DNA from: a virus
Taxonomy: Duplodnaviria > Heunggongvirae > Uroviricota > Caudoviricetes
Direction: 5' to 3' (one strand)
DNA: 38,146 bases
IMG/VR virus record: IMGVR_UViG_2695420714_000020
Every line of letters begins with the position of its first letter. Position 1 is the stretch's first letter. The notes below the pieces were generated by a model that was given only the letters and a program-made list of their open reading frames with translations, was not told where the DNA came from and made no database searches. This document shows positions 9,071 through 34,982 of the stretch, one piece after another. The position numbers and the translations under genes are program-made.

Positions 9071-9937
9071 ATGCAAAGAATTATTCCTGATAAAAATTGG
9101 TGGGAAAAAGAGCGTATTAATCGTAAAGCATCATCAATATGCCCATATGCTAGTTCATACAGATGTCCTCGATACTATCAGAGTGTAGTTTTGCTCTCAA
9201 GCATCAATGTGATAGCTGGTATGGCAACTAGGAAAGAAAAAGAGTTGGGTGAATTTTGGGAAAGAACCACTTTCTCATCTTTATGTGATGAAGAAGTCCC
9301 TACAGTTACTACAAAAGAATATGGCGGCCTTGCATCAGTTAGTAATTTTTGCCCAGAAATATCATTTAGATATTTACACTACTACGCCGATTATATGTGT
9401 AAATATGTTGATGAGATAGATCAGGACACTGGCAGGCGTATTGCGGAAAAAGATAATTTAGAAAATGATTGGAAATATACATGGATGTCAGTCAATCCTA
9501 AATTTTATTTAGATTGCGATGTTTTTGAAAGTGTCAAAAATTTCAATGAAGAATTGGCTAGTGATTACTTAAAAAGATTGCACCCAAATATCGTTCAGCA
9601 AATAGATAGAATGAATAATTGCTTGGATAATAATGATCCGGCAGGTGCACTGCACGCAGCCTCTAATATTTTAGAAACTATGGCTAAGGAAATCACTCAA
9701 AACCCGAATGTGGCAAATGAGTCATTGGGTGGTTTTTTTAAACAGTTCGAAAAAATGTCAAAATTACCTAAGAATCTTATTGATGCTGTTAAAGATATTT
9801 ATGATTTACGCAACAAATTACCTACTGCTGGACACGGAAGCTTGAACAAGCCTGAATTGACTATGGTAGAAGCTATAACTATTGCGGCAATGACAAAGGC
9901 GATTTTAGAAATTGAATATCGAAGCAAAGCCATCTAA
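9071..9937 (+). CDS. Orphan accessory protein, 288 aa, unknown function
   Basis: AT-rich ORF in the accessory region after about 430 bp of AT-rich non-coding DNA containing the palindrome GATAAATTTTTATC. No motif recognised; weak ribosome-binding site. Confidence 0.55.
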   Translation: MQRIIPDKNWWEKERINRKASSICPYASSYRCPRYYQSVVLLSSINVIAGMATRKEKELGEFWERTTFSSLCDEEVPTVTTKEYGGLASVSNFCPEISFRYLHYYADYMCKYVDEIDQDTGRRIAEKDNLENDWKYTWMSVNPKFYLDCDVFESVKNFNEELASDYLKRLHPNIVQQIDRMNNCLDNNDPAGALHAASNILETMAKEITQNPNVANESLGGFFKQFEKMSKLPKNLIDAVKDIYDLRNKLPTAGHGSLNKPELTMVEAITIAAMTKAILEIEYRSKAI

Positions 9938-10186: not shown

Positions 10187-10840
10187 TCATTTCGATGATT
10201 GATCCAGATGTGTATATAACCATTGAAAGAGTTTTCTAATTTTTGTGATAGTATCTTTTAAATAATTTAAGGAGATTATTATATTATTTTCATTGTTTAA
10301 TGAAAGAGTAGGTGTTTTATCAATGATATTTTTTAAGGCTACAGCTGTGCTCATTTTTTTAATGTCTCCATTAGCATGAACTATGCAATTCCTTACTTTG
10401 TTAAACTCTGTCATGAATTGCCACTCTTGTGACAGGCCAAAGTTTATATCCATTAATTTTGTTAAATATCTTTTTGCTTTGTGGATGCCATCACCATTAA
10501 AATCGGTTACTGATATATTGGTGTTTACAATCCTTTGACATATATTGCAATAGTCGTTTAGGTTGTGCTCTAAGCATGAGTATAAAGATACCAAAGCAGA
10601 TTTATTAAAAATATTTGGTTGTATGTTAACTAAGAAATCATATTGCTCTGAATAATAGTCTTCTAAGTAATTAATATAATCGTCAGGAGCATTCTTTTTT
10701 TCATCTTCATATGCTTTTTTTAATTCCGCTAAGTTAACTCTGTTTTGGCCGCCTGCTCCTAGGATATATTTTTCGAAATCATCAATCTGCGCTTCAAGTG
10801 AATATCTTGATAGCTGTGCGAAAAGTTTGTATTTACTCAT
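10187..10840 (-). CDS. Accessory protein, 217 aa, with candidate HEPN motif (RNCIVH)
   Basis: AT-rich ORF convergent with 9071..9937. Residues 150-155 RNCIVH match the R-x4-6-H HEPN signature in its common RNxxxH form. Confidence 0.55.
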   Translation of the reverse strand: MSKYKLFAQLSRYSLEAQIDDFEKYILGAGGQNRVNLAELKKAYEDEKKNAPDDYINYLEDYYSEQYDFLVNIQPNIFNKSALVSLYSCLEHNLNDYCNICQRIVNTNISVTDFNGDGIHKAKRYLTKLMDINFGLSQEWQFMTEFNKVRNCIVHANGDIKKMSTAVALKNIIDKTPTLSLNNENNIIISLNYLKDTITKIRKLFQWLYTHLDQSSK

Positions 10841-11270: not shown

Positions 11271-12920
11271 ATGTTAGTCAAGAAAAATAAAAATTATAGT
11301 TTATATTTTTTAATTACAAATAATCAACAGATATCTGATTCTGGTAATTATATAAAAATAGTCCCATCAAGAAGCGATTGGAATGATTTTGGATATTTGA
11401 GTAGAGTCGAAATATCTATTTTTAATAAAAAAGAGTGTAAGGATATAATTTCACTGAATGGTTATATTGGTTTTTTGAATTCAGAGGAGGAACGAAATGG
11501 AAAAGCAGAACTGATAAGGCGAGTGAAGAAAAAGGAAGAATCTAATTTAAAGGATGAGGGGTTTAATGATTATTTTGTCATGCTTCAGGATATGAATAAT
11601 TATCGAAGACTAGTAAGATTTTTTGGGGTGAATGAATCCAAATATATATTAAATTTCATTAATGATGTTGTTTCTAAGAAAAGTGACGCTAGTGCAGAGA
11701 ATTTGAGGAAAAAAGCAATCTCTTCTGATATCTTTAATAAATCTTTCATTAGAGAGTCTGAGTCGTATTTTACTTTCAAAAATGCAGGAACAGTTCTTTC
11801 CGGTATTCAATATGAGGAGTTGGGTAATTTATCACAGCACATCAAGATTAGCTATTCGAATAAAGTTAATGAAGAAGATGTATCTTATGTTTTTAATTTT
11901 GATCACGAGCATGATTTACCAAAAAGAATTTCCATAATTATAGGCGAGAATGGTGTAGGAAAAAGCCAAACGCTTAGAGAAATCGCATTGGCTGCGATTA
12001 AAGGAAAGGATAATTTGGTGGCTGTAGTTGATTCTAACGGTGTGAGCATTGAAGAACGAATTCAAATTAGTAGGCTCATTGCTTTTTCTCCAACAAATGA
12101 AAGTAAGTGTTCATTTCCAACCGATAAAAGAATAAAATCATTGATATGGTACAAAAGATTGACTTTAAATCGTGAATCAAAATCCAAATTAAACTTGAAT
12201 GATTTAATAGTGCAACTAGCGAGGAGTAACGACGCTATCGGCTATAATCAAAGGTGGAATATATTTGTTGATGCACTGAGTGTTCTAAATAGTAACAACG
12301 ATTTAGTAATCAAATGTAGCGGTGAAAATTCACCATTTGTTAAATTAAATGAGCTTAATTCTCGAGGCGAAGAATCCAGACTATCATTATATTCTGAAAT
12401 TATTCTCTCTGGCGAGCCTTTGAGGCTTGTTGAAAATAAATGTTACCCTTTGAGTAGTGGGGAAATATCGTTTATTAAGTTTTGTGTACAAGTCTGTTTG
12501 TATATTGAGAATGGGACTCTTCTATTAATAGATGAGCCAGAAACACATCTCCATCCTTCATTTATTAATAAATTTATGGCATTGCTTGATAATTTATTAG
12601 AAAAGACAGGCTCTTCAGCTATCATAGCAACGCATTCGGTTTATCTTGTTCGGGAGGTTTTTAAGGAGCAAGTGACAATACTCAGAAGACGAGATGATGG
12701 GGTAATTGTTAGCGAAAAACCGAGATTGAGTACTTTTGGGGCGAATATAGGAAATATCTCATATTTTGTTTTCGGTGAGAGTGAACCAACTCAAATTTTA
12801 AATAAAGTAAAAAATAATATAATTGCAAAGAATATGTCTTGGGATGATGTTGAATCTAAATATAGCGAGGACTTATCACTTAATGTATTAACTGCGTTGA
12901 GAAATGAAATAGGTAATTGA
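11271..12920 (+). CDS. ABC-type ATPase with ~215-aa N-terminal extension (candidate defense ATPase, PtuA-like)
   Basis: 549 aa. Walker A GENGVGKS (aa 225-232), ABC signature LSSGE (394-398), Walker B LLLIDEPE (417-424), H-loop ATHS (453-456). N-terminal 215 aa have no recognisable motif. AT-rich. Confidence 0.7.
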   Translation: MLVKKNKNYSLYFLITNNQQISDSGNYIKIVPSRSDWNDFGYLSRVEISIFNKKECKDIISLNGYIGFLNSEEERNGKAELIRRVKKKEESNLKDEGFNDYFVMLQDMNNYRRLVRFFGVNESKYILNFINDVVSKKSDASAENLRKKAISSDIFNKSFIRESESYFTFKNAGTVLSGIQYEELGNLSQHIKISYSNKVNEEDVSYVFNFDHEHDLPKRISIIIGENGVGKSQTLREIALAAIKGKDNLVAVVDSNGVSIEERIQISRLIAFSPTNESKCSFPTDKRIKSLIWYKRLTLNRESKSKLNLNDLIVQLARSNDAIGYNQRWNIFVDALSVLNSNNDLVIKCSGENSPFVKLNELNSRGEESRLSLYSEIILSGEPLRLVENKCYPLSSGEISFIKFCVQVCLYIENGTLLLIDEPETHLHPSFINKFMALLDNLLEKTGSSAIIATHSVYLVREVFKEQVTILRRRDDGVIVSEKPRLSTFGANIGNISYFVFGESEPTQILNKVKNNIIAKNMSWDDVESKYSEDLSLNVLTALRNEIGN

Positions 12921-12921
12921 A

Positions 12922-13785
12922 ATGAATAAATTAAAAAGACCTGTTTTTAAAGATTATTCTGCATTTAAAAAACTATCTGCAAATAAGAGATTAAAACATC
13001 ATTCTGTTCTGAATGGACAGGATACATTTATACTTAATGCATATAGATCGTACATAAAGAATAAAGGATATCTTAATGTCAATTCTTGTGGCGTATTGAG
13101 TAACAATATTGCTGAAGCTTTGAAATATTATTATAACAATCCCGCAAAGTGTTTATCTATAATTGATGATATAAGAGCAGCTAATTCTAACTCTCTATGT
13201 CCAATGTGTGGTTCAATGCATAGCGGGACTTTGGATCATGTTTTACCCAAGGAAAACTATCCAGAATTTTCTTTATTCACTAAGAATTTGGTTCCTGCTT
13301 GCAAATGTAATACTTTCAAAAGTACTACTATAGCTAATTCTGCAGGCCATCGGATGCTGCATCCATATTTTGATAATATATTAAAACAAAGATTAATATG
13401 TGCTAATTTTTCTAAATTAGGGCGAACACCTACAATTGATGTAAAAATCATAATTGACCCAATGTCACCAGAATATAACAATGTTAAGTATCATCTTGAT
13501 AATGTTGTTATCAAGAATAATATTAAGGGGTATTTGTCTGAACAATGGGAGTCGTTTTACTTATATCCTGAGCTTGTTATTAGAGGACTGAATAAGAGTC
13601 TTTCTACTTATAGCGATGTATATGAGTTGTTGACTCGCGAGTTGTTGCTGTTGGATGAAAAACATAAAGGTAAAAATAATTGGAATTCGGTTTTTGTAGC
13701 TGGGTTAATTCGACCTGATGTGATTAGGTGGATACTCTGTGAATTACATTTAGGTAACAGAAGTCCAGACGGTCGTCTCATATGA
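12922..13785 (+). CDS. HNH-motif nuclease (candidate effector, PtuB-like)
   Basis: 287 aa. CPMCGSMHSGTLDHVLPKENYPEFSLFTKNLVPACKCN (CxxC...DH...N...CxC, aa 93-130). ATG is 1 nt after the ATPase stop, so the two genes are coupled. Confidence 0.65.
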   Translation: MNKLKRPVFKDYSAFKKLSANKRLKHHSVLNGQDTFILNAYRSYIKNKGYLNVNSCGVLSNNIAEALKYYYNNPAKCLSIIDDIRAANSNSLCPMCGSMHSGTLDHVLPKENYPEFSLFTKNLVPACKCNTFKSTTIANSAGHRMLHPYFDNILKQRLICANFSKLGRTPTIDVKIIIDPMSPEYNNVKYHLDNVVIKNNIKGYLSEQWESFYLYPELVIRGLNKSLSTYSDVYELLTRELLLLDEKHKGKNNWNSVFVAGLIRPDVIRWILCELHLGNRSPDGRLI

Positions 13786-13892: not shown

Positions 13893-14927
13893 TTAAGTAG
13901 CTAGTTTATAACTATCAAATTTAACAATGTTCTCACTTACCAATTTATTTATTTCCATCATTCTTTTTTGTAACGGTATTAACTCGTTACGTACAAACAC
14001 CAGGCTCGCCTTCTCCACATCCCCAAACCCCCCGACATTATTAGGCATAATCCCCATCATTTGCGGTGGCACACGATGCGCCGCCATCATGTCATCCCGG
14101 CTCACGTTCTTGATGTTCAGAAACTCATCCTTCGCCGCGACTTCTGACAACGGGATGATCTGAAGCCCGTCCTTTTTGCCGTTAGGCGAGTACATAAACA
14201 GATTGCGGAAGTTACCTGGTCCTTTGGCGCTTTTCATCGCATTGCGGAGGTTGTTCACATCCTCCTGGTTTTGCGCGGCATCGGTCATGTACATGATGAA
14301 GCCTGCATGACTGCCGTTAATGTAATACTTTCGGCGGAACAGCGTGGCGGACTCGTTGAGCAGGGCTGACGGAATGGCAGAAAGGTAACCTGGCAGGCCG
14401 TAGATCTCCTGGTTGATGTCCGGTTCCATCAGATGAAAAATGCTGCCTTTCGTGAACTGATACGGCTGGGTTGTCATACCGTATTGCACAAACCAGTAGG
14501 TATCCAGGTCTAACCCGCGTCGGGTGTATTTTGCCAGAGCAGGCTCAAGAGCGATGACCTCTCCGAACCGGTTTGTGCGTTTCTCCAGGTAAGCGTTACC
14601 AAATACCAGATAATCCTGCACAAAACGTGAAAAAGCCTGCTGGCTGAGCAGCGGGTGAGGGATGTAGGTACTGGTCAGAATGTTGCACTTTACTGCAATC
14701 GGGGAGCTATGATGTACGGCAGCGCGGAAGGTTCGCGCCAGTCCGTCAAAACTCACTGGCGGCTCATACCAGCGATCTGTCTGTACGCATTCCACATAGT
14801 CCAGTAGTTCACGGCGGTCCAGAACCGGAACGGGATCGCCGAAGCTGAATGCTTCGGCTGAAGCCTGGTTTTTATGCTGGATCTGTTTCGTCGACGCAGC
14901 GCGGTTTTTCTTAATCTTTCCCATCAA
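13893..14927 (-). CDS. Q: Portal protein gpQ
   Basis: 344 aa, identical in length to P2 Q; start overlaps the terminase stop; leftward late operon. Confidence 0.9.
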   Translation of the reverse strand: MMGKIKKNRAASTKQIQHKNQASAEAFSFGDPVPVLDRRELLDYVECVQTDRWYEPPVSFDGLARTFRAAVHHSSPIAVKCNILTSTYIPHPLLSQQAFSRFVQDYLVFGNAYLEKRTNRFGEVIALEPALAKYTRRGLDLDTYWFVQYGMTTQPYQFTKGSIFHLMEPDINQEIYGLPGYLSAIPSALLNESATLFRRKYYINGSHAGFIMYMTDAAQNQEDVNNLRNAMKSAKGPGNFRNLFMYSPNGKKDGLQIIPLSEVAAKDEFLNIKNVSRDDMMAAHRVPPQMMGIMPNNVGGFGDVEKASLVFVRNELIPLQKRMMEINKLVSENIVKFDSYKLAT

Positions 14928-25107: not shown

Positions 25108-25705
25108 TCTGCTGCCACCGGGTTCAACACCACTGGAGCGCCGACTGGCGCAAACCTGCAGCGGGATTTCTGATCTGCAGGTGCCGCTTCGTGACTTGTG
25201 GAATCCGGCAACCTGTCCGGTCAGTTTCCTGCCTTATCTCGCCTGGGCGTTCTCTGTAGATCGCTGGGACGAGGGCTGGACAGAAAGCGTCAAGCGCCAG
25301 GTGGTGAAGGATGCTTTTTATATTCATCAGCATAAAGGGACCACCAGTGCCGTGCGGCGGGTGGTGGAGCCGTTCGGCTTTCTGATCCGCATTATTGAGT
25401 GGTGGCAGACCGGAGAGGCACCGGGCACGTTTCGCCTGGATATCGGCGTGCAGGACCAGGGTATCACTGAAGATACCTATCTGGAACTTGAGCGACTGAT
25501 AAGCGATGCCAAACCATGTAGCCGCCACATGATCGGCATATCCATCAATCTGCAGACCAGCGGCCCGCATTGGGTGGGAGCCGCCAGCTATCTTGGCGAA
25601 GAAATCACGATCTATCCGTATATCAACGAAACGATTATTTCCGGTGGCACCGCGCATGAAGGCGGGGCGGTCCATGTTATTGACACAATGAGAGTGAATC
25701 CATGA
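25100..25705 (+). CDS. I: Baseplate protein gpI
   Basis: 201 aa; position between J and H. Confidence 0.8.
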   Translation: MNSLLPPGSTPLERRLAQTCSGISDLQVPLRDLWNPATCPVSFLPYLAWAFSVDRWDEGWTESVKRQVVKDAFYIHQHKGTTSAVRRVVEPFGFLIRIIEWWQTGEAPGTFRLDIGVQDQGITEDTYLELERLISDAKPCSRHMIGISINLQTSGPHWVGAASYLGEEITIYPYINETIISGGTAHEGGAVHVIDTMRVNP

Positions 25706-27621
25706 GCACAAAATTTTATACCCTGCTGACGGATATTGGCGCGGCGAAACTTGCCAGCGCCACCGCGCTCGGTGTGCCGCTAAAAATTACCCATATGGCG
25801 GTGGGCGATGGCGGCGGAGTATTGCCAACGCCGGACGCAAAGCAGACGGCACTGGTAAATGAGAAACGCCGGGCTGCGCTGAATATGCTTTATATCGACC
25901 CGCAGAACAGCAGCCAGATTATTGCTGAACAGGTGATCCCTGAAAACGAGGGCGGTTGGTGGATACGTGAAGTGGGCTTGTTTGATGAGTCCGGGGCATT
26001 GATTGCCGTGGGTAACTGCCCGGAAAGCTATAAGCCGCAACTGGCTGAAGGCAGTGGGCGTACCCAGACCGTGCGCATGGTGCTGATTACCAGCAGTACG
26101 GACAATATCATCCTGAAAATCGACCCTGCTGTAGTGCTGGCAACCCGCAAGTATGTGGATGACAAAATATCAGAGCACGAACAGTCACGACGTCACCCGG
26201 ACGCCTCGCTGACCGCAAAAGGTTTTACTCAGTTAAGCAGTGCGACCAACAGTGAATCCGAAATACTGGCCGCAACACCGAAGGCTGTGAAGGCTGCATA
26301 TGATCTTGCAGCAGGTAAAGCATCCGCCAGTCACACGCACCCGTGGAGCCAGATAACAGATGTGCCTGCAGCTTCACTGACGGTAAAAGGCACCGTGCAA
26401 CTCAGCAGCGCTACTAACAGCACGTCAGAAACGCAGGCTGCCACACCAAAAGCCGTGAAGGCTGCATATGATCTTGCAGCAGGTAAAGCATCCGCCAGTC
26501 ACACACACCCGTGGAATCAGATAACGGATGTGCCTGCAGCTTCACTGACGGTAAAAGGCACCGTGCAACTCAGCAGCGCCACTAACAGCACGTCAGAAAT
26601 GCAGGCTGCCACACCAAAGGCAGTGAAGGCGGCATATGACCTTGCAGCAGGTAAGGCACCTGTCAGTCACACGCACCCGTGGAGCCAGATAACAGATGTG
26701 CCTGCAGCTTCACTGACGGTAAAAGGCACCGTGCAACTCAGCAGCGCTACTAACAGCACGTCAGAAACGCAGGCTGCCACACCAAAAGCCGTGAAGGCTG
26801 TATATGACCTTGCCAATGGAAAACAACCTGCCGACGCCACACTGACCGCACTGGCAGGCCTTGCCACTGCGGCAGACAAACTTCCGTATTTTACGGGGAA
26901 TGATACAGCCAGCCTGACAACCCTGACTAACGTTGGACGGAATATTCTGGATAAAGCAAGCACACAGGCGGTTATTCAATATCTTGGTCTGAGCGATGCA
27001 AGTGGATACGTTGGACGCTGGCTGAATACCCGGGTTTTCACCTCATCAGGTACGTACACCACGACGCCAGGAACAAAACGGATTAGGGTCACAATAACGG
27101 GCGGCGGTGGCGGAGGGGGCGGCTGCAAGGCTATATCCAATAATGAAACGTTTTTCGGTGCTGGCGGCGGGGCAGGTGGGACAGTAATCACCACGCTGAT
27201 CCTGACGAAGGATAGTTATCCTGTCACTATCGGCGCAGGTGGGGCCGGCGGCGTTAGTGCGACGAACGGCCTCAAGGGCGGTGATAGCTCGTTCGGATCG
27301 GTAATAGCCCCTGGTGGTGAAGGTGGTGGAAAATCAGGAGTCACAAACACGAACGGTGGTAACGGCGGTGTGCCAAGTACTGGCGGTATCAACATCATTG
27401 GTGGAAATGGAGGCGACGGTCAGTCCGGAAATATCGGCGTCAGCGGTGAAGGCGGAACATCGCACTGGGGTGGCGGTGGACGCGCAGGCGCTGGCGGTGG
27501 TGTTAGTGGTAAGGCATATGGTTCAGGTGGCGGTGGCGCATACGATGCCGGTTATAGCGGAACCAGTATGACAGGCGGGAAAGGTGCCGCTGGGATTTGT
27601 ATTATCGAGGAGTTTGCATAA
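25702..27621 (+). CDS. H: Tail fiber protein gpH with tandem repeats and glycine-rich C-terminal domain
   Basis: N-terminus MSTKFYTLLTDIGAAKLA...MAVGDGGG matches P2 H. Central 56-aa repeats (SSATNS...ATPKAVKAAYDLAAGK...SHTHPW). C-terminal ~180 aa are Gly-rich (GGGGGGGGC...GGNGG...). Confidence 0.9.
   Translation: MSTKFYTLLTDIGAAKLASATALGVPLKITHMAVGDGGGVLPTPDAKQTALVNEKRRAALNMLYIDPQNSSQIIAEQVIPENEGGWWIREVGLFDESGALIAVGNCPESYKPQLAEGSGRTQTVRMVLITSSTDNIILKIDPAVVLATRKYVDDKISEHEQSRRHPDASLTAKGFTQLSSATNSESEILAATPKAVKAAYDLAAGKASASHTHPWSQITDVPAASLTVKGTVQLSSATNSTSETQAATPKAVKAAYDLAAGKASASHTHPWNQITDVPAASLTVKGTVQLSSATNSTSEMQAATPKAVKAAYDLAAGKAPVSHTHPWSQITDVPAASLTVKGTVQLSSATNSTSETQAATPKAVKAVYDLANGKQPADATLTALAGLATAADKLPYFTGNDTASLTTLTNVGRNILDKASTQAVIQYLGLSDASGYVGRWLNTRVFTSSGTYTTTPGTKRIRVTITGGGGGGGGCKAISNNETFFGAGGGAGGTVITTLILTKDSYPVTIGAGGAGGVSATNGLKGGDSSFGSVIAPGGEGGGKSGVTNTNGGNGGVPSTGGINIIGGNGGDGQSGNIGVSGEGGTSHWGGGGRAGAGGGVSGKAYGSGGGGAYDAGYSGTSMTGGKGAAGICIIEEFA
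26212..26825 (+). repeat. Tandem 168-bp (56-codon) repeats inside the tail fiber gene, about 3.6 copies
   Basis: Unit starts at 26212, 26380, 26548 and 26716 with near-identical nucleotide sequence (for example GCTGCCACACCAAAAGCCGTGAAGGCTGCATATGA); the fourth copy diverges after about 36 codons. Confidence 0.85.
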
Positions 27622-28140: not shown

Positions 28141-29313
28141 ATGGCTCAGGATTACCACCACGGAGTGCGCGTTGTTGAAGTCAACGAAGGCACTCGATCC
28201 ATTACCACGGTGAGCACCGCCATCGTGGGCATGGTCTGCACGGGCGATGATGCCGATGCAAAAATGTTCCCTCTTAATAAACCCGTGCTGATCACTGATG
28301 TGCTTACTGCCAGCGGTAAGGCGGGTGAATCCGGTACGCTGGCCCGTTCGCTGGATGCCATCGCTGACCAGGCAAAACCCGTGACCGTTGTTGTGCGTGT
28401 GCCGCAGGGTGAAACGGAAGAAGAAACCACGACCAATATCATCGGCGCAGTGACTGCTGAAGGTAAAAAAACTGGTATGAAAGCCCTGTTATCTGCCCAG
28501 TCACAGCTCGGTGTTAAACCGCGCATTCTCGGCGTGCCGGGGCACGATAATAAAGCCGTTGCTACTGAGTTGCTGGGCGTGGCGCAAAGCCTGCGTGGGT
28601 TTGCTTACCTGTCAGCGTATGGCTGCAAGACGGTGCAGGAGGCGATCACTTACCGTAAAAACTTCAGTCAGCGTGAAGGGATGCTGATTTGGCCTGACTT
28701 TACTGGCTGGGACACGGTGCTGAATGCCGACGCAACGGCATATGCCACCGCCCGTGCGCTTGGTCTGCGTGCCAAAATTGATGAGCAGACAGGGTGGCAC
28801 AAAAGCCTGTCCAACGTGGGCGTGAACGGTGTCACCGGAATTTCTGCTGATGTGTTCTGGGATCTGCAGGACCCGGCAACTGATGCGGGACTACTTAACC
28901 AGAACGATGTTACCACACTTATCCGCAAAGACGGCTTTCGCTTCTGGGGTTCCCGCTGCCTGAGTGATGACCCACTCTTTGCCTTCGAAAACTACACCCG
29001 CACGGCGCAGGTGCTGATGGACACGATGGCAGAAGCGCCAATGTGGGCGGTCGACAAACCGCTGAATCCGTCGCTGGCCCGCGACATTATCGAAGGTATC
29101 CGCGCCAAAATGCGCAGCCTGATCAGTCAGGGCTATCTCATTGGTGGCGATTGCTGGCTGGATGAGTCGGTGAACGACAAAGACACTCTGAAAGCTGGAA
29201 AACTCACCATCGACTACGACTACACACCAGTGCCGCCACTTGAAAACCTGATGCTGCGTCAGCGCATCACCGATCAGTACCTGGTGAATTTCTCCAGCCA
29301 GGTCAGCGCGTAA
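28141..29313 (+). CDS. FI: Tail sheath protein gpFI
   Basis: 390 aa; N-terminus [31 protein letters not shown] matches P2 FI. Confidence 0.92.
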
Positions 29314-29322
29314 GGGGACAAC

Positions 29323-29838
29323 ATGGCTTTACCACGCAAATTAAAACACCTCAACCTGTTTAACGACGGGAACAACTGGCAGGGGATCGTTGAGTCGCTG
29401 ACGCTGCCGAAATTCACCCGCAAATATGAGAAGTATCGCGGTGGCGGAATGCCGGGTGCAGTGGATGTGGATTTGGGGCTGGATGATAGTGCGCTGGACA
29501 CAGAATTTTCCATTGGTGGTACTGAACTGCTGCTGTTTAAGCAGATGGGCAAAGTCACGGTGGATGGTATCCAGTTGCGCTTTACCGGCTCTATTCAGCG
29601 TGACGATACCGGGGAAGTGCAGGCCGTGGAGCTTGTGGTGCGTGGACGTCACAAAGAAGTGGATTCCGGCGAGTGGAAGACGGGCGAAAGCAACACCACC
29701 AAAGTGACCAGTACCAACAGCTACGCGAAGCTGACTATCAATGGTGAGGTGCTCTATGAAGTGGACCTTATCAACATGGTGGAAATTGTGGACGGCGTGG
29801 ACCTGATGGAAGCGCACCGCAACGCCCTCGGCCTCTGA
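29323..29838 (+). CDS. FII: Tail tube protein gpFII
   Basis: 171 aa, directly after the sheath gene. Confidence 0.9.
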   Translation: MALPRKLKHLNLFNDGNNWQGIVESLTLPKFTRKYEKYRGGGMPGAVDVDLGLDDSALDTEFSIGGTELLLFKQMGKVTVDGIQLRFTGSIQRDDTGEVQAVELVVRGRHKEVDSGEWKTGESNTTKVTSTNSYAKLTINGEVLYEVDLINMVEIVDGVDLMEAHRNALGL

Positions 29839-29892: not shown

Positions 29893-30195
29893 ATGAGCGA
29901 TAAGCAGACTGAAAAGACTATTCAACTGGATACCCCTATCAAGCGCGGTAAAACGGAAATCACCGAAATTGTGCTGCGTAAACCGCAGTCCGGTGCACTG
30001 CGCGGTACACGCCTGCAGGCTATTATGGATATGGATGTGAACGCGATGATGACCGTGATCCCCCGCATCTCCAGCCCGGCACTGACTGCACAGGAAATTG
30101 CAGAGATGGACCCGGCAGATCTCACCGCTATGTCGGTTGAGGTTGTCACTTTTTTGTTGAAGAAGTCGGTACTTGCCGGTTTACCGACAGCCTGA
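29893..30195 (+). CDS. E: Tail assembly chaperone gpE (with -1 frameshift extension E' to 30329)
   Basis: 100-aa ORF with slippery heptamer T-TTT-TTG at 30150..30156 in the XXXYYYZ phase. The -1 frame from 30156 stays open to the TGA at 30327..30329, overlapping the T start, as in P2 E/E'. Confidence 0.8.
   Translation: MSDKQTEKTIQLDTPIKRGKTEITEIVLRKPQSGALRGTRLQAIMDMDVNAMMTVIPRISSPALTAQEIAEMDPADLTAMSVEVVTFLLKKSVLAGLPTA
30150..30156 (+). other. Programmed -1 ribosomal frameshift slippery site TTTTTTG (E to E+E')
   Basis: Heptamer in the correct phase within gpE; downstream -1 frame open for 58 codons, ending just after the tape measure start. Confidence 0.7.
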
Positions 30196-30321
30196 CGGTT
30201 GACGATCTGGTGGCTGATATCGCCACCATCTTTCACTGGCCGCCATCCGTTACTGACGTTATGCCGCTGACCGAAGTGCTGGAATGGCGGTATAAAGCGA
30301 TTCAGAGAAGCGGGGCCAACG

Positions 30322-33300
30322 ATGAGTGATAATAACCTGCGCCTGCAGGTCATTCTTAATGCGGTTGACAAACTCACCCGCCCATTCCGTGCTGCACAGG
30401 CCAGTTCGAAAGAGCTGGCTGGCGCAATCAGAAACTCCCGTGACGCATTAAAGCAACTCAATCAGGCGGGTAACAGCTTGGAAAAATTTCGCAAGCTGCA
30501 GGCCGATAACAAGAAGTTAGGCGACAGGCTGAACTATGCCAGACAGAAGGCAAATTTGCTTAGTTCTGAGCTGGAAGCGATGGAACAACCATCACAACGG
30601 CACCTTGTGGCTTTAGGTCGGCAAACGCTGGCAGTCCAACGCCTGGAAGAACAACAAAAATATTTGCAGAAGCAAACGGCGCTTGTGCGTGCAGAACTGT
30701 ACCGGACGGGAATTTCTGCGAAAGATGATGCGGGAGCAACTGCCCGTTTAGCCCGTGAAACATCACGTTATAACCAGGAATTGTCGAAACAGGAGGCGCG
30801 GCTGAAGCGACTGGGTGAAGCTCAGCGCAGGATGAATGCGGCGCGTGCCAGTTATGCCCGTTCGCTGGAGGTGCGCGATCGTATTGCAGGAGCCGGAGCC
30901 ACTACCACGGCTGCAGGGCTGGCAATGGGGACGCCAGTGATGGCGGCAGTAAAAAGCTATACCAGCATGGAAGATGCCATGAAAGGTGTGGCAAAGCAGG
31001 TCAATGGTCTGCGTGACGATAATGGAAACCGTACTGCACGTTTTTATGAAATGCAGGATGCCATCAAGGCTGCCAGCGAACAGTTGCCGATGGAAAACGG
31101 TGCGGTGGACTTCGCTGCACTGGTTGAAGGTGGTGCGCGCATGAACGTCGCAGACCCTGACGACAGCTGGGAAGACCAGAAACGTGACCTGCTGGCCTTC
31201 GCCAGTACGGCAGCAAAGGCGGCAACAGCCTTTGAGCTGCCAGCGGATGAACTGTCAGAAAGTCTGGGGAAAATCGCCCAGCTCTACAAAATACCTACCC
31301 GCAATATTGAACAGCTCGGCGATGCGCTGAACTATCTGGATGATAACGCCATGTCGAAAGGGGCGGACATCATTGATGTGATGCAACGTCTGGGCGGTGT
31401 GGCTGACCGTCTGGATTATAGTAAAGCGGCGGCACTGGGTTCCACCTTTCTGACACTGGGCGCTGCGCCGGAGGTTGCAGCCAGTGCAGCAAACGCGATG
31501 GTGCGTGAATTGTCCATTGCCACCATGCAAAGCAAGAGTTTCTTTGAAGGGATGAATCTGCTGAAACTCAATCCTGAAGTGATTGAAAAGCAGATGACGA
31601 AGGATGCGATGGGAACTATCCAGCGTGTGCTGGAGAAGGTGAACGCACTGCCGCAGGACAAGCGTCTGTCTGCCATGACCATGTTGTTTGGTAAAGAGTT
31701 TGGCGATGACGCGGCGAAACTGGCAAACAACCTGCCGGAACTACAGCGCCAGCTAAAACTGACAGCGGGCAATGATGCGCTCGGTTCCATGCAGAAAGAA
31801 TCCGACATCAACAAGGACTCACTTTCTGCTCAGTGGTTGCTGGTTAAAACCGGAGCGCAGAATACCTTCAGCAGCCTGGGAGAAACGCTGTGCCAGCCGC
31901 TGATGGATATTCTGTACACGGTGAAAAGCGTTACGGGAGCGTTGCGTCGCTGGGTGGAAGCTAACCCGGAACTGACGGGCACACTGATGAAAGTAGCCGC
32001 TATTGTGGCTGCGGTTACCGTAGGCCTCGGCACCTTGGCTGTGGCGCTGGCTGCAGTGCTGGGGCCGCTGGCAGTCATCCGTCTGGGATTCTCTGTGCTG
32101 GGCATCAAAACGTTACCTTCCATTACGGCAGCAGTAACACGAACTAGCAGCGCGTTGTCCTGGCTGGCTGGCTGGCGCTCCACTGGCAGTGCTGCGACGC
32201 GGGCTTGCTTCATCGGGTAACGCAGCGGGTTTACTTACTGCGCCGTTGTCGTCTTTGCGCCGTACGGCATCACTGACGGGAAATGTCCTGAAAACTGTAG
32301 CAGGTGCGCCGGTTGCACTATTGCGGTCTGGATTATCCGCTTTACATGCTGTTGCTGTGATGTTTATGAATCCTCTGGCGGTACTGCGCGGTGGACTGGC
32401 TGCCGTAGGCGCGGTGCTTCGTGTGCTTGCATCTGGTCCGCTGGCGATGCTGCGCGTTGCCCTGTATGCCATATCTGGTCTGTTAGGTGCTCTGCTCAGT
32501 CCGATAGGTCTTGTGGTTACTGCACTGGCGGGCGTGGCGCTGGTTGTCTGGAAATACTGGCAACCCATCACCGCATTTCTCGGTGGCGTGGTGGAAGGAT
32601 TCAAAGCGGCGGCAGGTCCCATCAGTGCTGCATTCGAACCACTTAAGCCTGTGTTTCAGTGGATTGGCGACAAAGTACAGGCGCTGTGGGGCTGGTTTAC
32701 TGATCTGCTGACGCCCGTTAAGTCGACCTCTGCCGAACTGCAGAGTGCAGCGGCAATGGGGCGGCGATTCGGGGAGGCACTGGCGGAAGGGCTGAATATG
32801 GTCATGCATCCGCTGGACTCCCTGAAATCCGGCGTTTCCTGGTTGCTGGAGAAGCTCGGCATTGTCAGTAAAGAGGCCGCAAAGGCAAAACTGCCGGAAA
32901 GCGTGACGCGTCAGCAACCTGCGACGGTGAATGCAGACGGTAAAGTGATGATGCCATCGGGTGGTTTTCCATCATGGGGATATGGCTTTGCGGGGATGTA
33001 TGACAGCGGCGGGTATATCCCGCGCGGGCAGTTTGGCATCGTCGGTGAAAACGGGCCGGAAATTGTTAACGGCCCGGCAAATGTGACCAGCCGGAGAAAT
33101 ACAGCTGCACTGGCTGCCGTTGTTGCCGGAATGATGGGCGTTGCTGCCGCGCCTGCAGAGCTTCCACCGTTGCATCCTTTGGCACTTCCCGCGAAAGGCG
33201 GCGAAGCGATGGTGAGTCGTGCAGCCACTGTGCCGCCCGTTCACCGGATTGAGGCACCGACGCAGATCATCATTCAGACGCAGCTAGGACAAAGTGCGCA

Positions 33301-33403
33301 GGATATTGCGCGGGAGGTGGCACGCCAGCTTGATGAACGTGAACGCAGGCTGAAGGCAAAAGCCAGGAGTAACTACAGCGATCAGGGGGGATACGACGCA
33401 TGA
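30322..33403 (+). CDS. T: Tail tape measure protein gpT, reading frame interrupted (two ORFs: 30322..32220 and 32189..33403)
   Basis: Ala/Leu-rich tape-measure-like sequence split across frames 1 and 2 with an 83-bp overlap; the (TGGC)4 tract at 32161..32176 lies in the overlap. Position between E' and U. Confidence 0.8.
32161..32176 (+). repeat. (TGGC)4 tetranucleotide repeat at the tape measure frameshift point
   Basis: Removing one TGGC unit joins the two ORFs into a continuous reading ...SALSWLAGAPLAVLRRGLASS... Confidence 0.8.
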
Positions 33404-33885
33404 TGATGGTGCTGGGATTGTACGTGTTTATGCTGCGCACCGTTCCGTATCAGGAACTGCAGTATCAACGCAGCTGGCGACATGCGGCAAACAGCCGGGT
33501 AAACCGTCGTCCGTCCACGCAGTTTCTGGGACCGGACAACGACATGCTGACGCTTTCCGGTGTTCTTATGCCGGAGATAACAGGCGGCAGGCTGTCGTTG
33601 CTGGCTCTGGAGCAGATGGCAGAACAGGGGAAAGCATGGCCCCTGATTGAAGGTAGCGGCACGATTTACGGCATGTATGTGATTGAGGGACTGAATCAGA
33701 CTAAAACGGAGTTTTTCCGCGACGGTATGCCGCGCCGGATTGAGTTCACCCTGTCGCTCAAACGGGTGGATGAATCCCTGTCCGATATGTTCGGTGATCT
33801 CAATTCGCAGCTGAATAAGCTGCAGGACACGGCAACATCTGCATTAAGCGATATCAGTAAAACTGTGGGAGGGCTGTTGTCGTGA
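33400..33885 (+). CDS. U: Tail protein gpU
   Basis: 161 aa starting MMMVLGLYVFMLRTVPYQELQYQRSWRH; follows the tape measure. Confidence 0.85.
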   Translation: MMMVLGLYVFMLRTVPYQELQYQRSWRHAANSRVNRRPSTQFLGPDNDMLTLSGVLMPEITGGRLSLLALEQMAEQGKAWPLIEGSGTIYGMYVIEGLNQTKTEFFRDGMPRRIEFTLSLKRVDESLSDMFGDLNSQLNKLQDTATSALSDISKTVGGLLS

Positions 33886-34982
33886 ATTTCAGCTCTGAAC
33901 TGCTTAACAAAGGTAACAAAACTCCCGCATTCAGCATCAGTATTGAGGGCAGGGATATCACCACTGTGCTGGATAACCGCCTGATGAGGCTGACGCTGAC
34001 GGATAACCGGGGCTTTGAAGCGGACCAGCTTGATCTGGAGCTGGACGACGCCGATGGAAAAATAGCGCTGCCGCGCCGTGGTGCTGTCATTACGCTGGCG
34101 CTGGGCTGGAAGGGGCAGCCGCTTTTCCCGAAAGGGGCATTCACGGTGGACGAGATTGAACACACTGGCGCACCGGACCGCCTGACTATCCGGGCGCGAA
34201 GTGCTGATTTTCGGGAAACGCTGAATACCCGCCGTGAAAAATCGTGGCATAAGACCACCGTCGGGGAAGTGGTGAAGGAAATAGCCTCGCGGCATAAGCT
34301 GAAGATGGCACTGGGTAAAGACCTGTCGGATAAGCTCGTAGAGCATATAGACCAGACTAATGAGAGTGACGGTAGTTTTCTGATGCGGCTGGCGCGACAG
34401 TACGGTGCCATCGCGTCGGTGAAAAATGGCAATCTGTTATTCATCCGGCAGGGGCAGGGCAAAAGCGCCACTGGTAAACCACTGCCGGTGATCACTATCA
34501 CACGCAAGGACGGCGACAGTCACCGCTTTACCCTGGCAGATCGCGGAGCCTACACGGGCGTAATTGCCAGTTGGTTGCATACCCGCGAACCCGCGAAGAA
34601 AGAAAGCACCACGGTGAAGCGTAAGCGCAGGACTAAGAAGCAGAAGAAAGAGCCGGAAGCGAAGCAGGGCGATTACCTGGTGGGTACGGATGAAAACGTG
34701 CTGGTACTTAATCGCACCTATGCTAATCGGAGTAACGCCGAACGGGCAGCGAAAATGCAGTGGGAACGCCTGCAACGCGGCGTTGCGTCATTCTCGCTAC
34801 AACTGGCGGAAGGGCGGGCAGATCTCTACACGGAAATGCCAGTGAAAGTCAGTGGCTTTAAACAGCCGATAGATGATGCGGAATGGACCATTACGACTCT
34901 GACGCATACCGTCAGCCCGGATAACGGTTTTACGACCAGTCTGGAGCTTGAAGTGAGGATTGATGATTTCGAAATGGAATGA
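33882..34982 (+). CDS. D: Tail protein gpD (late control gene D)
   Basis: 366 aa, GTG start overlapping the U stop; last gene of the tail operon before ogr. Confidence 0.85.
   Translation: MNFSSELLNKGNKTPAFSISIEGRDITTVLDNRLMRLTLTDNRGFEADQLDLELDDADGKIALPRRGAVITLALGWKGQPLFPKGAFTVDEIEHTGAPDRLTIRARSADFRETLNTRREKSWHKTTVGEVVKEIASRHKLKMALGKDLSDKLVEHIDQTNESDGSFLMRLARQYGAIASVKNGNLLFIRQGQGKSATGKPLPVITITRKDGDSHRFTLADRGAYTGVIASWLHTREPAKKESTTVKRKRRTKKQKKEPEAKQGDYLVGTDENVLVLNRTYANRSNAERAAKMQWERLQRGVASFSLQLAEGRADLYTEMPVKVSGFKQPIDDAEWTITTLTHTVSPDNGFTTSLELEVRIDDFEME

Follow-up and report, generated by a model that had tools for sequence, protein, structure and literature searches.

A four-base repeat-unit gain splits the tape measure gene of a P2-like prophage of Escherichia coli

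The tape measure gene of a P2-like (Peduoviridae) prophage is present as a disrupted allele in the window, by which we mean the whole 38,146-base stretch of DNA analysed here. The gene is divided between two reading frames by one additional TGGC unit within a short tetranucleotide tract, and we consider it very probable that this unit arose through a recent slipped-strand duplication, from three units to four, that is private to one lineage and occurred in an otherwise intact prophage. Because the ORF is split between frames, with a frame 1 stop at 32218 and the remainder of the gene in frame 2, the locus is best described as a pseudogene and not as an intact member of its family.

The tail gene cluster and the split reading frame

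The prophage is followed in the window by the E. coli genes ybjL, ybjM and grxA, and its integration site in E. coli lies between rcdA and ybjL. Its tail gene cluster runs in the order sheath, tube, E/E', T, U, D and ogr, an order shared by the window, the closest complete genome (E. coli Z1322HEC0003), phage Cartapus and the contig CYAC01000014.1. The sheath gene occupies 28141..29313 and the tube gene 29323..29838; these are followed by the tail chaperone gene E (29893..30195, frame 1) and the E' ORF of 39 codons (30210..30329), which lies in the -1 frame relative to E. A slippery heptamer, TTTTTTG, is located at 30150..30156, near the end of gene E, and the region 29893..30329 is the conserved P2 E/E+E' programmed frameshift, which is intact here. 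The tape measure gene begins at 30322, before E' has ended, and the gpU (33400..33885) and gpD (33882..34982) genes lie downstream, so that the split gene sits in the position expected for gene T, between the E/E' chaperone genes and the gpU/gpD genes.

Profile comparisons agree with this position. The upstream 632-aa fragment matches TIGR01760 (tape_meas_TP901) at 312.3 bits against a cut-off of 28.8 (3.7e-93 over residues 200-567), PF10145 at 69.3 bits against a cut-off of 33.2 (5e-19) and phrog_28 at 1.6e-157 over profile positions 105-652, while the frame 2 part matches positions 524-907 of phrog_5690 (2e-134) and phrog_28 from position 600 onward. The two fragments thus fit consecutive stretches of tape measure profiles and are therefore parts of one protein of the TP901 family, homologous to P2 gpT. 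An earlier reading of this DNA, made from the sequence alone, had named the gene as a tape measure gene, an identity that the TIGR01760 and PF10145 scores bear out.

Read directly, the sequence around the junction is GTTGTC, four CTGG units, a single C and GCTCC. The tract, CTGGCTGGCTGGCTGGC, extends over 32160..32176 on the plus strand, as do all features described in this paragraph on that strand, and can be written either as (CTGG)4C or as C(TGGC)4, with (TGGC)4 at 32161..32176. It is perfect: Tandem Repeats Finder reports a period of 4, 4.2 copies and 100% matches. No second tract of this type is present in the window, shuffling of the window with dinucleotides preserved produced one in 0 of 100 sequences, and the only other perfect tetranucleotide tract of at least three units is (ATTT)3 at 13943. 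The 5' fragment of the gene (30322..32220) is read in frame 1 and encodes 632 aa, comprising 617 native residues and then 15 out-of-frame residues (WRSTGSAATRACFIG) before a TAA stop at 32218..32220. The 3' part (32177..33403) lies in frame 2 and encodes native residues 618-1025 plus the stop. The last frame 2 stop before the junction is at 32135..32137, and this frame is then open from 32138 to the stop at 33401..33403, leaving a stretch of 83 bases (32138..32220) in which, according to the stop-codon map, frames 1 and 2 are both open. The extra TGGC unit can be placed at 32173..32176, although its placement inside the tract is arbitrary. Removal of one TGGC in silico yields a continuous protein of 1025 aa that contains SALSWLAGAPLAVLRRGLASS and is identical to WP_001282756.1, the intact tape measure protein of the closest genome; residues 618-1025 carry no further change relative to the intact allele. 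The sequence-only reading had described the same frames, coordinates, repeat, junction peptide and 1025-aa product, all of which proved correct when checked against the sequence, the stop map and the unit deletion, and the 83-bp two-frame overlap containing (TGGC)4 that it reported is likewise present in the stop-codon map.

The C-terminal half of the protein begins, at 32177..32700 (residues about 618-790), with loosely repeated hydrophobic motifs (GAPLAVLRRGL, GAPVALLRSGL, NPLAVLRGGL and GPLAMLRVAL), and the first of these begins where the frame is broken. Elsewhere in the prophage, the tail fibre gene (25702..27621) holds a 168-base unit in 3.2 copies with 92% matches at 26268..26813. Between the replication gene and the portal gene lies a cargo pair (11271..13785) encoding an AAA ATPase (549 aa) and an HNH endonuclease (287 aa), which match the PADLOC candidate defence system PDC-M01A/B (2.4e-55 and 8.2e-34); the ATPase additionally matches Septu PtuA models. 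On these profile matches the pair is probably an anti-phage system occupying a P2 variable hotspot. Two further cargo ORFs, at 10187..10840 (minus strand) and 9071..9937 (plus strand), received no family assignment, the former having a weak PADLOC RTasHEPN match (1e-5).

Tract length in relatives and recurrence of the four-unit allele

The nearest complete genome is that of E. coli Z1322HEC0003 (NZ_CP148579.1; human, South Korea), in which this prophage also sits between rcdA and ybjL, next to a chromosomal flank that is 100% identical. Compared base by base, the whole window aligns with this genome as one block with four substitutions and one 4-base gap, and this gap, the TGGC inside the tract, is the only indel in 38,146 bases. 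The tape measure gene of Z1322HEC0003 is a single ORF of 1025 aa (WP_001282756.1). As for the substitutions, that at 1089 lies upstream of the annotated integrase start, that at 1852 is synonymous in the CI repressor gene, and that at 26358 is synonymous in the tail fibre gene, inside its 168-base repeat region; the substitution at 10735, in the minus-strand ORF 10187..10840, is the only non-synonymous one in an annotated gene (N36 here, D in Z1322HEC0003).

Other relatives share the shorter tract, which reads either (CTGG)3C or CTGGTTAGCTGGC, each of 13 nt. When viral contigs were searched for the two flanks of the tract with 5-25 bases between them, 46 loci were returned, and in all 46 exactly 13 bases separate the flanks. 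When the viral loci were pooled with 10 metagenome loci, 27 had CTGGCTGGCTGGC as their inner sequence, 24 had CTGGTTAGCTGGC and three others each had a variant of their own. Alignment revealed the same 4-base deficit relative to the window in phage Cartapus, Klebsiella phage 4LV2017 and 30 other phage records. Among complete E. coli genomes, a 40-base megablast query across the tract gave no matches, probably because the low-complexity filter masks the repeat, and a 121-base query was used instead. With this query the best 40 of 927 E. coli records span 117 of the 121 bases, as do all 58 full-length matches in a 60-row sample spread across the 927, and no record among them ranks above the Z1322HEC0003 match (96.7%, the sole difference being the 4-base gap). 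The four-unit allele, searched for as an exact match, was absent from viral contigs, where the three-unit control gave 23, and from metagenome contigs, where the control gave 10; in species-representative genome contigs the four-unit scan and the three-unit control both returned zero, so that this set says nothing either way. From this comparison of sequences, three units is the ancestral length and four units the derived one, and the earlier description of the gene as split by its repeat is borne out as a gain of one 4-base unit relative to all relatives examined.

The constancy of the tract in relatives bears directly on whether it might act as a contingency locus that reversibly switches tail production, one of the explanations raised by the sequence-only reading. 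Gain and loss of tetranucleotide units is a classical mechanism of phase variation, and a change from four units back to three would restore the gene exactly. The tract, however, is very short, with three units in the intact gene, and is neither long nor conserved as a perfect repeat: the CTGGTTAGCTGGC interruption occurs in about half of the loci (24 of 54), so the purity of the repeat is not conserved. Nor is its length polymorphic, either in the 46 viral contigs or in the best 40 and the 58 spread-sample matches of the 927 E. coli records, and the off allele is confined to one lineage. Phase variation therefore receives no support at the population level, and we regard it as extremely improbable, while a rare reversion from four units to three is mechanistically possible.

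A private allele that differs by a single repeat unit also invites the suspicion of a sequencing or assembly error, in which case the true genome would carry (CTGG)3 and an intact gene. Consistent with such an error, the difference amounts to one repeat unit, and the four-unit tract was seen in no other public sequence examined beyond the carriers described here. Those carriers are found when the protein product is followed. Clusters at 90% protein identity hide truncated alleles under full-length representatives, and this was so for the 632-aa product, which is nevertheless present in GenBank as two exact matches, CTS53771.1 and CTS70678.1. Both the 632-aa product and a 347-aa ORF called downstream of it are found on four contigs. 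The carriers comprise CYAC01000014.1 (GCA_001284205.1, recorded for two samples) and the Logan assemblies of ERR134523 and ERR134524, and every carrier contig is 100% identical to the window over the shared length, with the four-unit tract present. The allele is reproduced at the level of assemblies, in two runs and two GenBank assemblies that may represent the same strain or the same DNA preparation. Recurrence in a GenBank contig and in two separately Logan-assembled read sets makes an assembly artefact unlikely; moreover, no other indel separates the 38-kb window from its nearest relative, which argues against a noisy assembly, and a tract of 17 bases should be too short to mislead an assembler. 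The sequencing or assembly indel that had been listed among the possible causes is, for these reasons, improbable.

Slippage as the probable cause and its predicted effect on tail assembly

A perfect short tandem repeat that has gained exactly one unit bears the mark of slipped-strand mispairing in replication, and of the causes put forward by the sequence-only reading, slipped-strand expansion is the one favoured by a one-unit gain relative to all relatives examined. Its accompanying suggestion of a domesticated prophage goes too far, there being one fresh lesion in a prophage that is otherwise intact. Our working hypothesis is that one CTGG/TGGC unit was duplicated by slippage, taking the tract from three units to four, in a P2-like prophage integrated between rcdA and ybjL. 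The +4 insertion shifts the frame after residue 617 of 1025, and translation appends 15 wrong residues before halting at 32218. The truncated product retains the N-terminal TP901-type core and loses 408 C-terminal residues.

Tail formation in P2 requires gene T, and the tape measure proteins of P2 and lambda need their C-terminal part to start polymerisation of the tail tube; from these two properties we infer that tail assembly is most likely blocked. The truncated protein would thus fail to support the assembly of tails, and the prophage is probably unable to form them. Since the loss of one unit would restore the gene precisely, rare revertants are expected, and infectious particles would come only from these. 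The model in a recent cryo-EM preprint on P2 places helices of the C-terminal tape measure region on gpV, the spike protein, within the baseplate (doi 10.64898/2026.09.14.750843).

The consequence would differ if a working tape measure were still made, either through a +1 ribosomal shift in the overlap or through separate translation of the C-terminal part, with the two pieces acting together. One candidate site for such a shift is GGG-UAA at 32215..32220, and its use would yield a protein of full length in which only a short patch is altered. Only 15 codons are read out of frame, and a shift at the end of these would rejoin the native frame; 'savior' indels offset by compensatory frameshifting are on record for other systems (PMC5009743). 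Against this, the homologues are single ORFs that lack a shift site, and hence nothing about the arrangement is conserved or selected; neither the arrangement nor the shift site recurs in homologues, the four-unit allele having been absent from the viral and metagenome scans. No Shine-Dalgarno-like stimulator or start site was found. For candidate restarts in frame 2 the anti-SD duplex energy reaches -5.1 kcal/mol at best, and among seven genuine starts in the tail cluster six give -7 to -11 kcal/mol and the seventh, that of gene E, gives -4.0 kcal/mol. A separate start for the C-terminal fragment was accordingly discounted, as no candidate start has a convincing ribosome-binding site, and a programmed frameshift in the tape measure gene was rejected on the grounds of single-ORF homologues and the lack of a slippery site. 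A low-level compensatory shift at GGG-UAA, though conceivable, gains no support from the locus. No two-piece tape measure is known to us from P2-like phages, and recoding or a functional split gene is exceedingly unlikely as an account of this locus.

It is possible to speculate further that the 4-base gain acts as a reversible lock, leaving a tail-less but complete prophage with its cargo defence genes from which slippage or a +1 shift releases a few particles. Were this so, the insertion would be a host-beneficial 'savior indel' and not plain decay, but we think such a lock very improbable. A recent and private duplication of one repeat unit remains the reading that we prefer, and its implications are mostly for annotation: the two ORFs belong together as a single pseudogene, a tape measure gene with a frameshift, and the prophage, despite its complete appearance, is better recorded as probably tail-defective. 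The locus illustrates cleanly how prophage decay takes its very first step, with one lesion and an intact sister copy to set beside it, and it lends itself to use as a natural test of reversion through slippage at the repeat. Beyond annotation it is of little importance, and it opens no long-standing question.

Comparison with known systems

Gene, phage family and mutational mechanism are all well known here, and the disrupted allele is a one-step, very recent case of prophage decay. P2 gpT and the other tape measure proteins of the TP901 family represent the same gene at the same place in the tail cluster. The window gene has 94-95% DNA identity to those of the Peduoviridae phages Cartapus (Escherichia), 4LV2017 (Klebsiella) and 500465-1 (Escherichia), and, the insertion set aside, is 100% identical in DNA to the intact allele of the E. 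coli prophage. All of these relatives have one ORF of 1025 aa, whereas the window ORF is broken after residue 617 by the +4 frameshift.

Two overlapping frames are also a feature of the E/E+E' programmed -1 frameshift, which belongs to the same tail cluster and adjoins the tape measure gene. E/E', however, has a conserved slippery heptamer and is found in all relatives, while the tape measure split has no slippery site, would need a +1 shift and is confined to one lineage. The tetranucleotide contingency loci of Haemophilus and Neisseria share the mechanism, a slipped-strand gain of 4 bases that shifts the frame, but are long, conserved and length-polymorphic, unlike the tract described here, which has three units when intact, is interrupted in about half of the relatives and is constant in length among them. 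The closest likeness in outcome is to prophage decay as seen in the cryptic and defective prophages of enterobacteria, where one inactivating indel likewise affects an essential virion gene and leaves the flanking host genes unaffected. In comparison with such prophages the present case is very early, with a single lesion and no sign of selection in either direction; apart from four SNPs, the remainder of the 35-kb prophage is the same as the intact copy.
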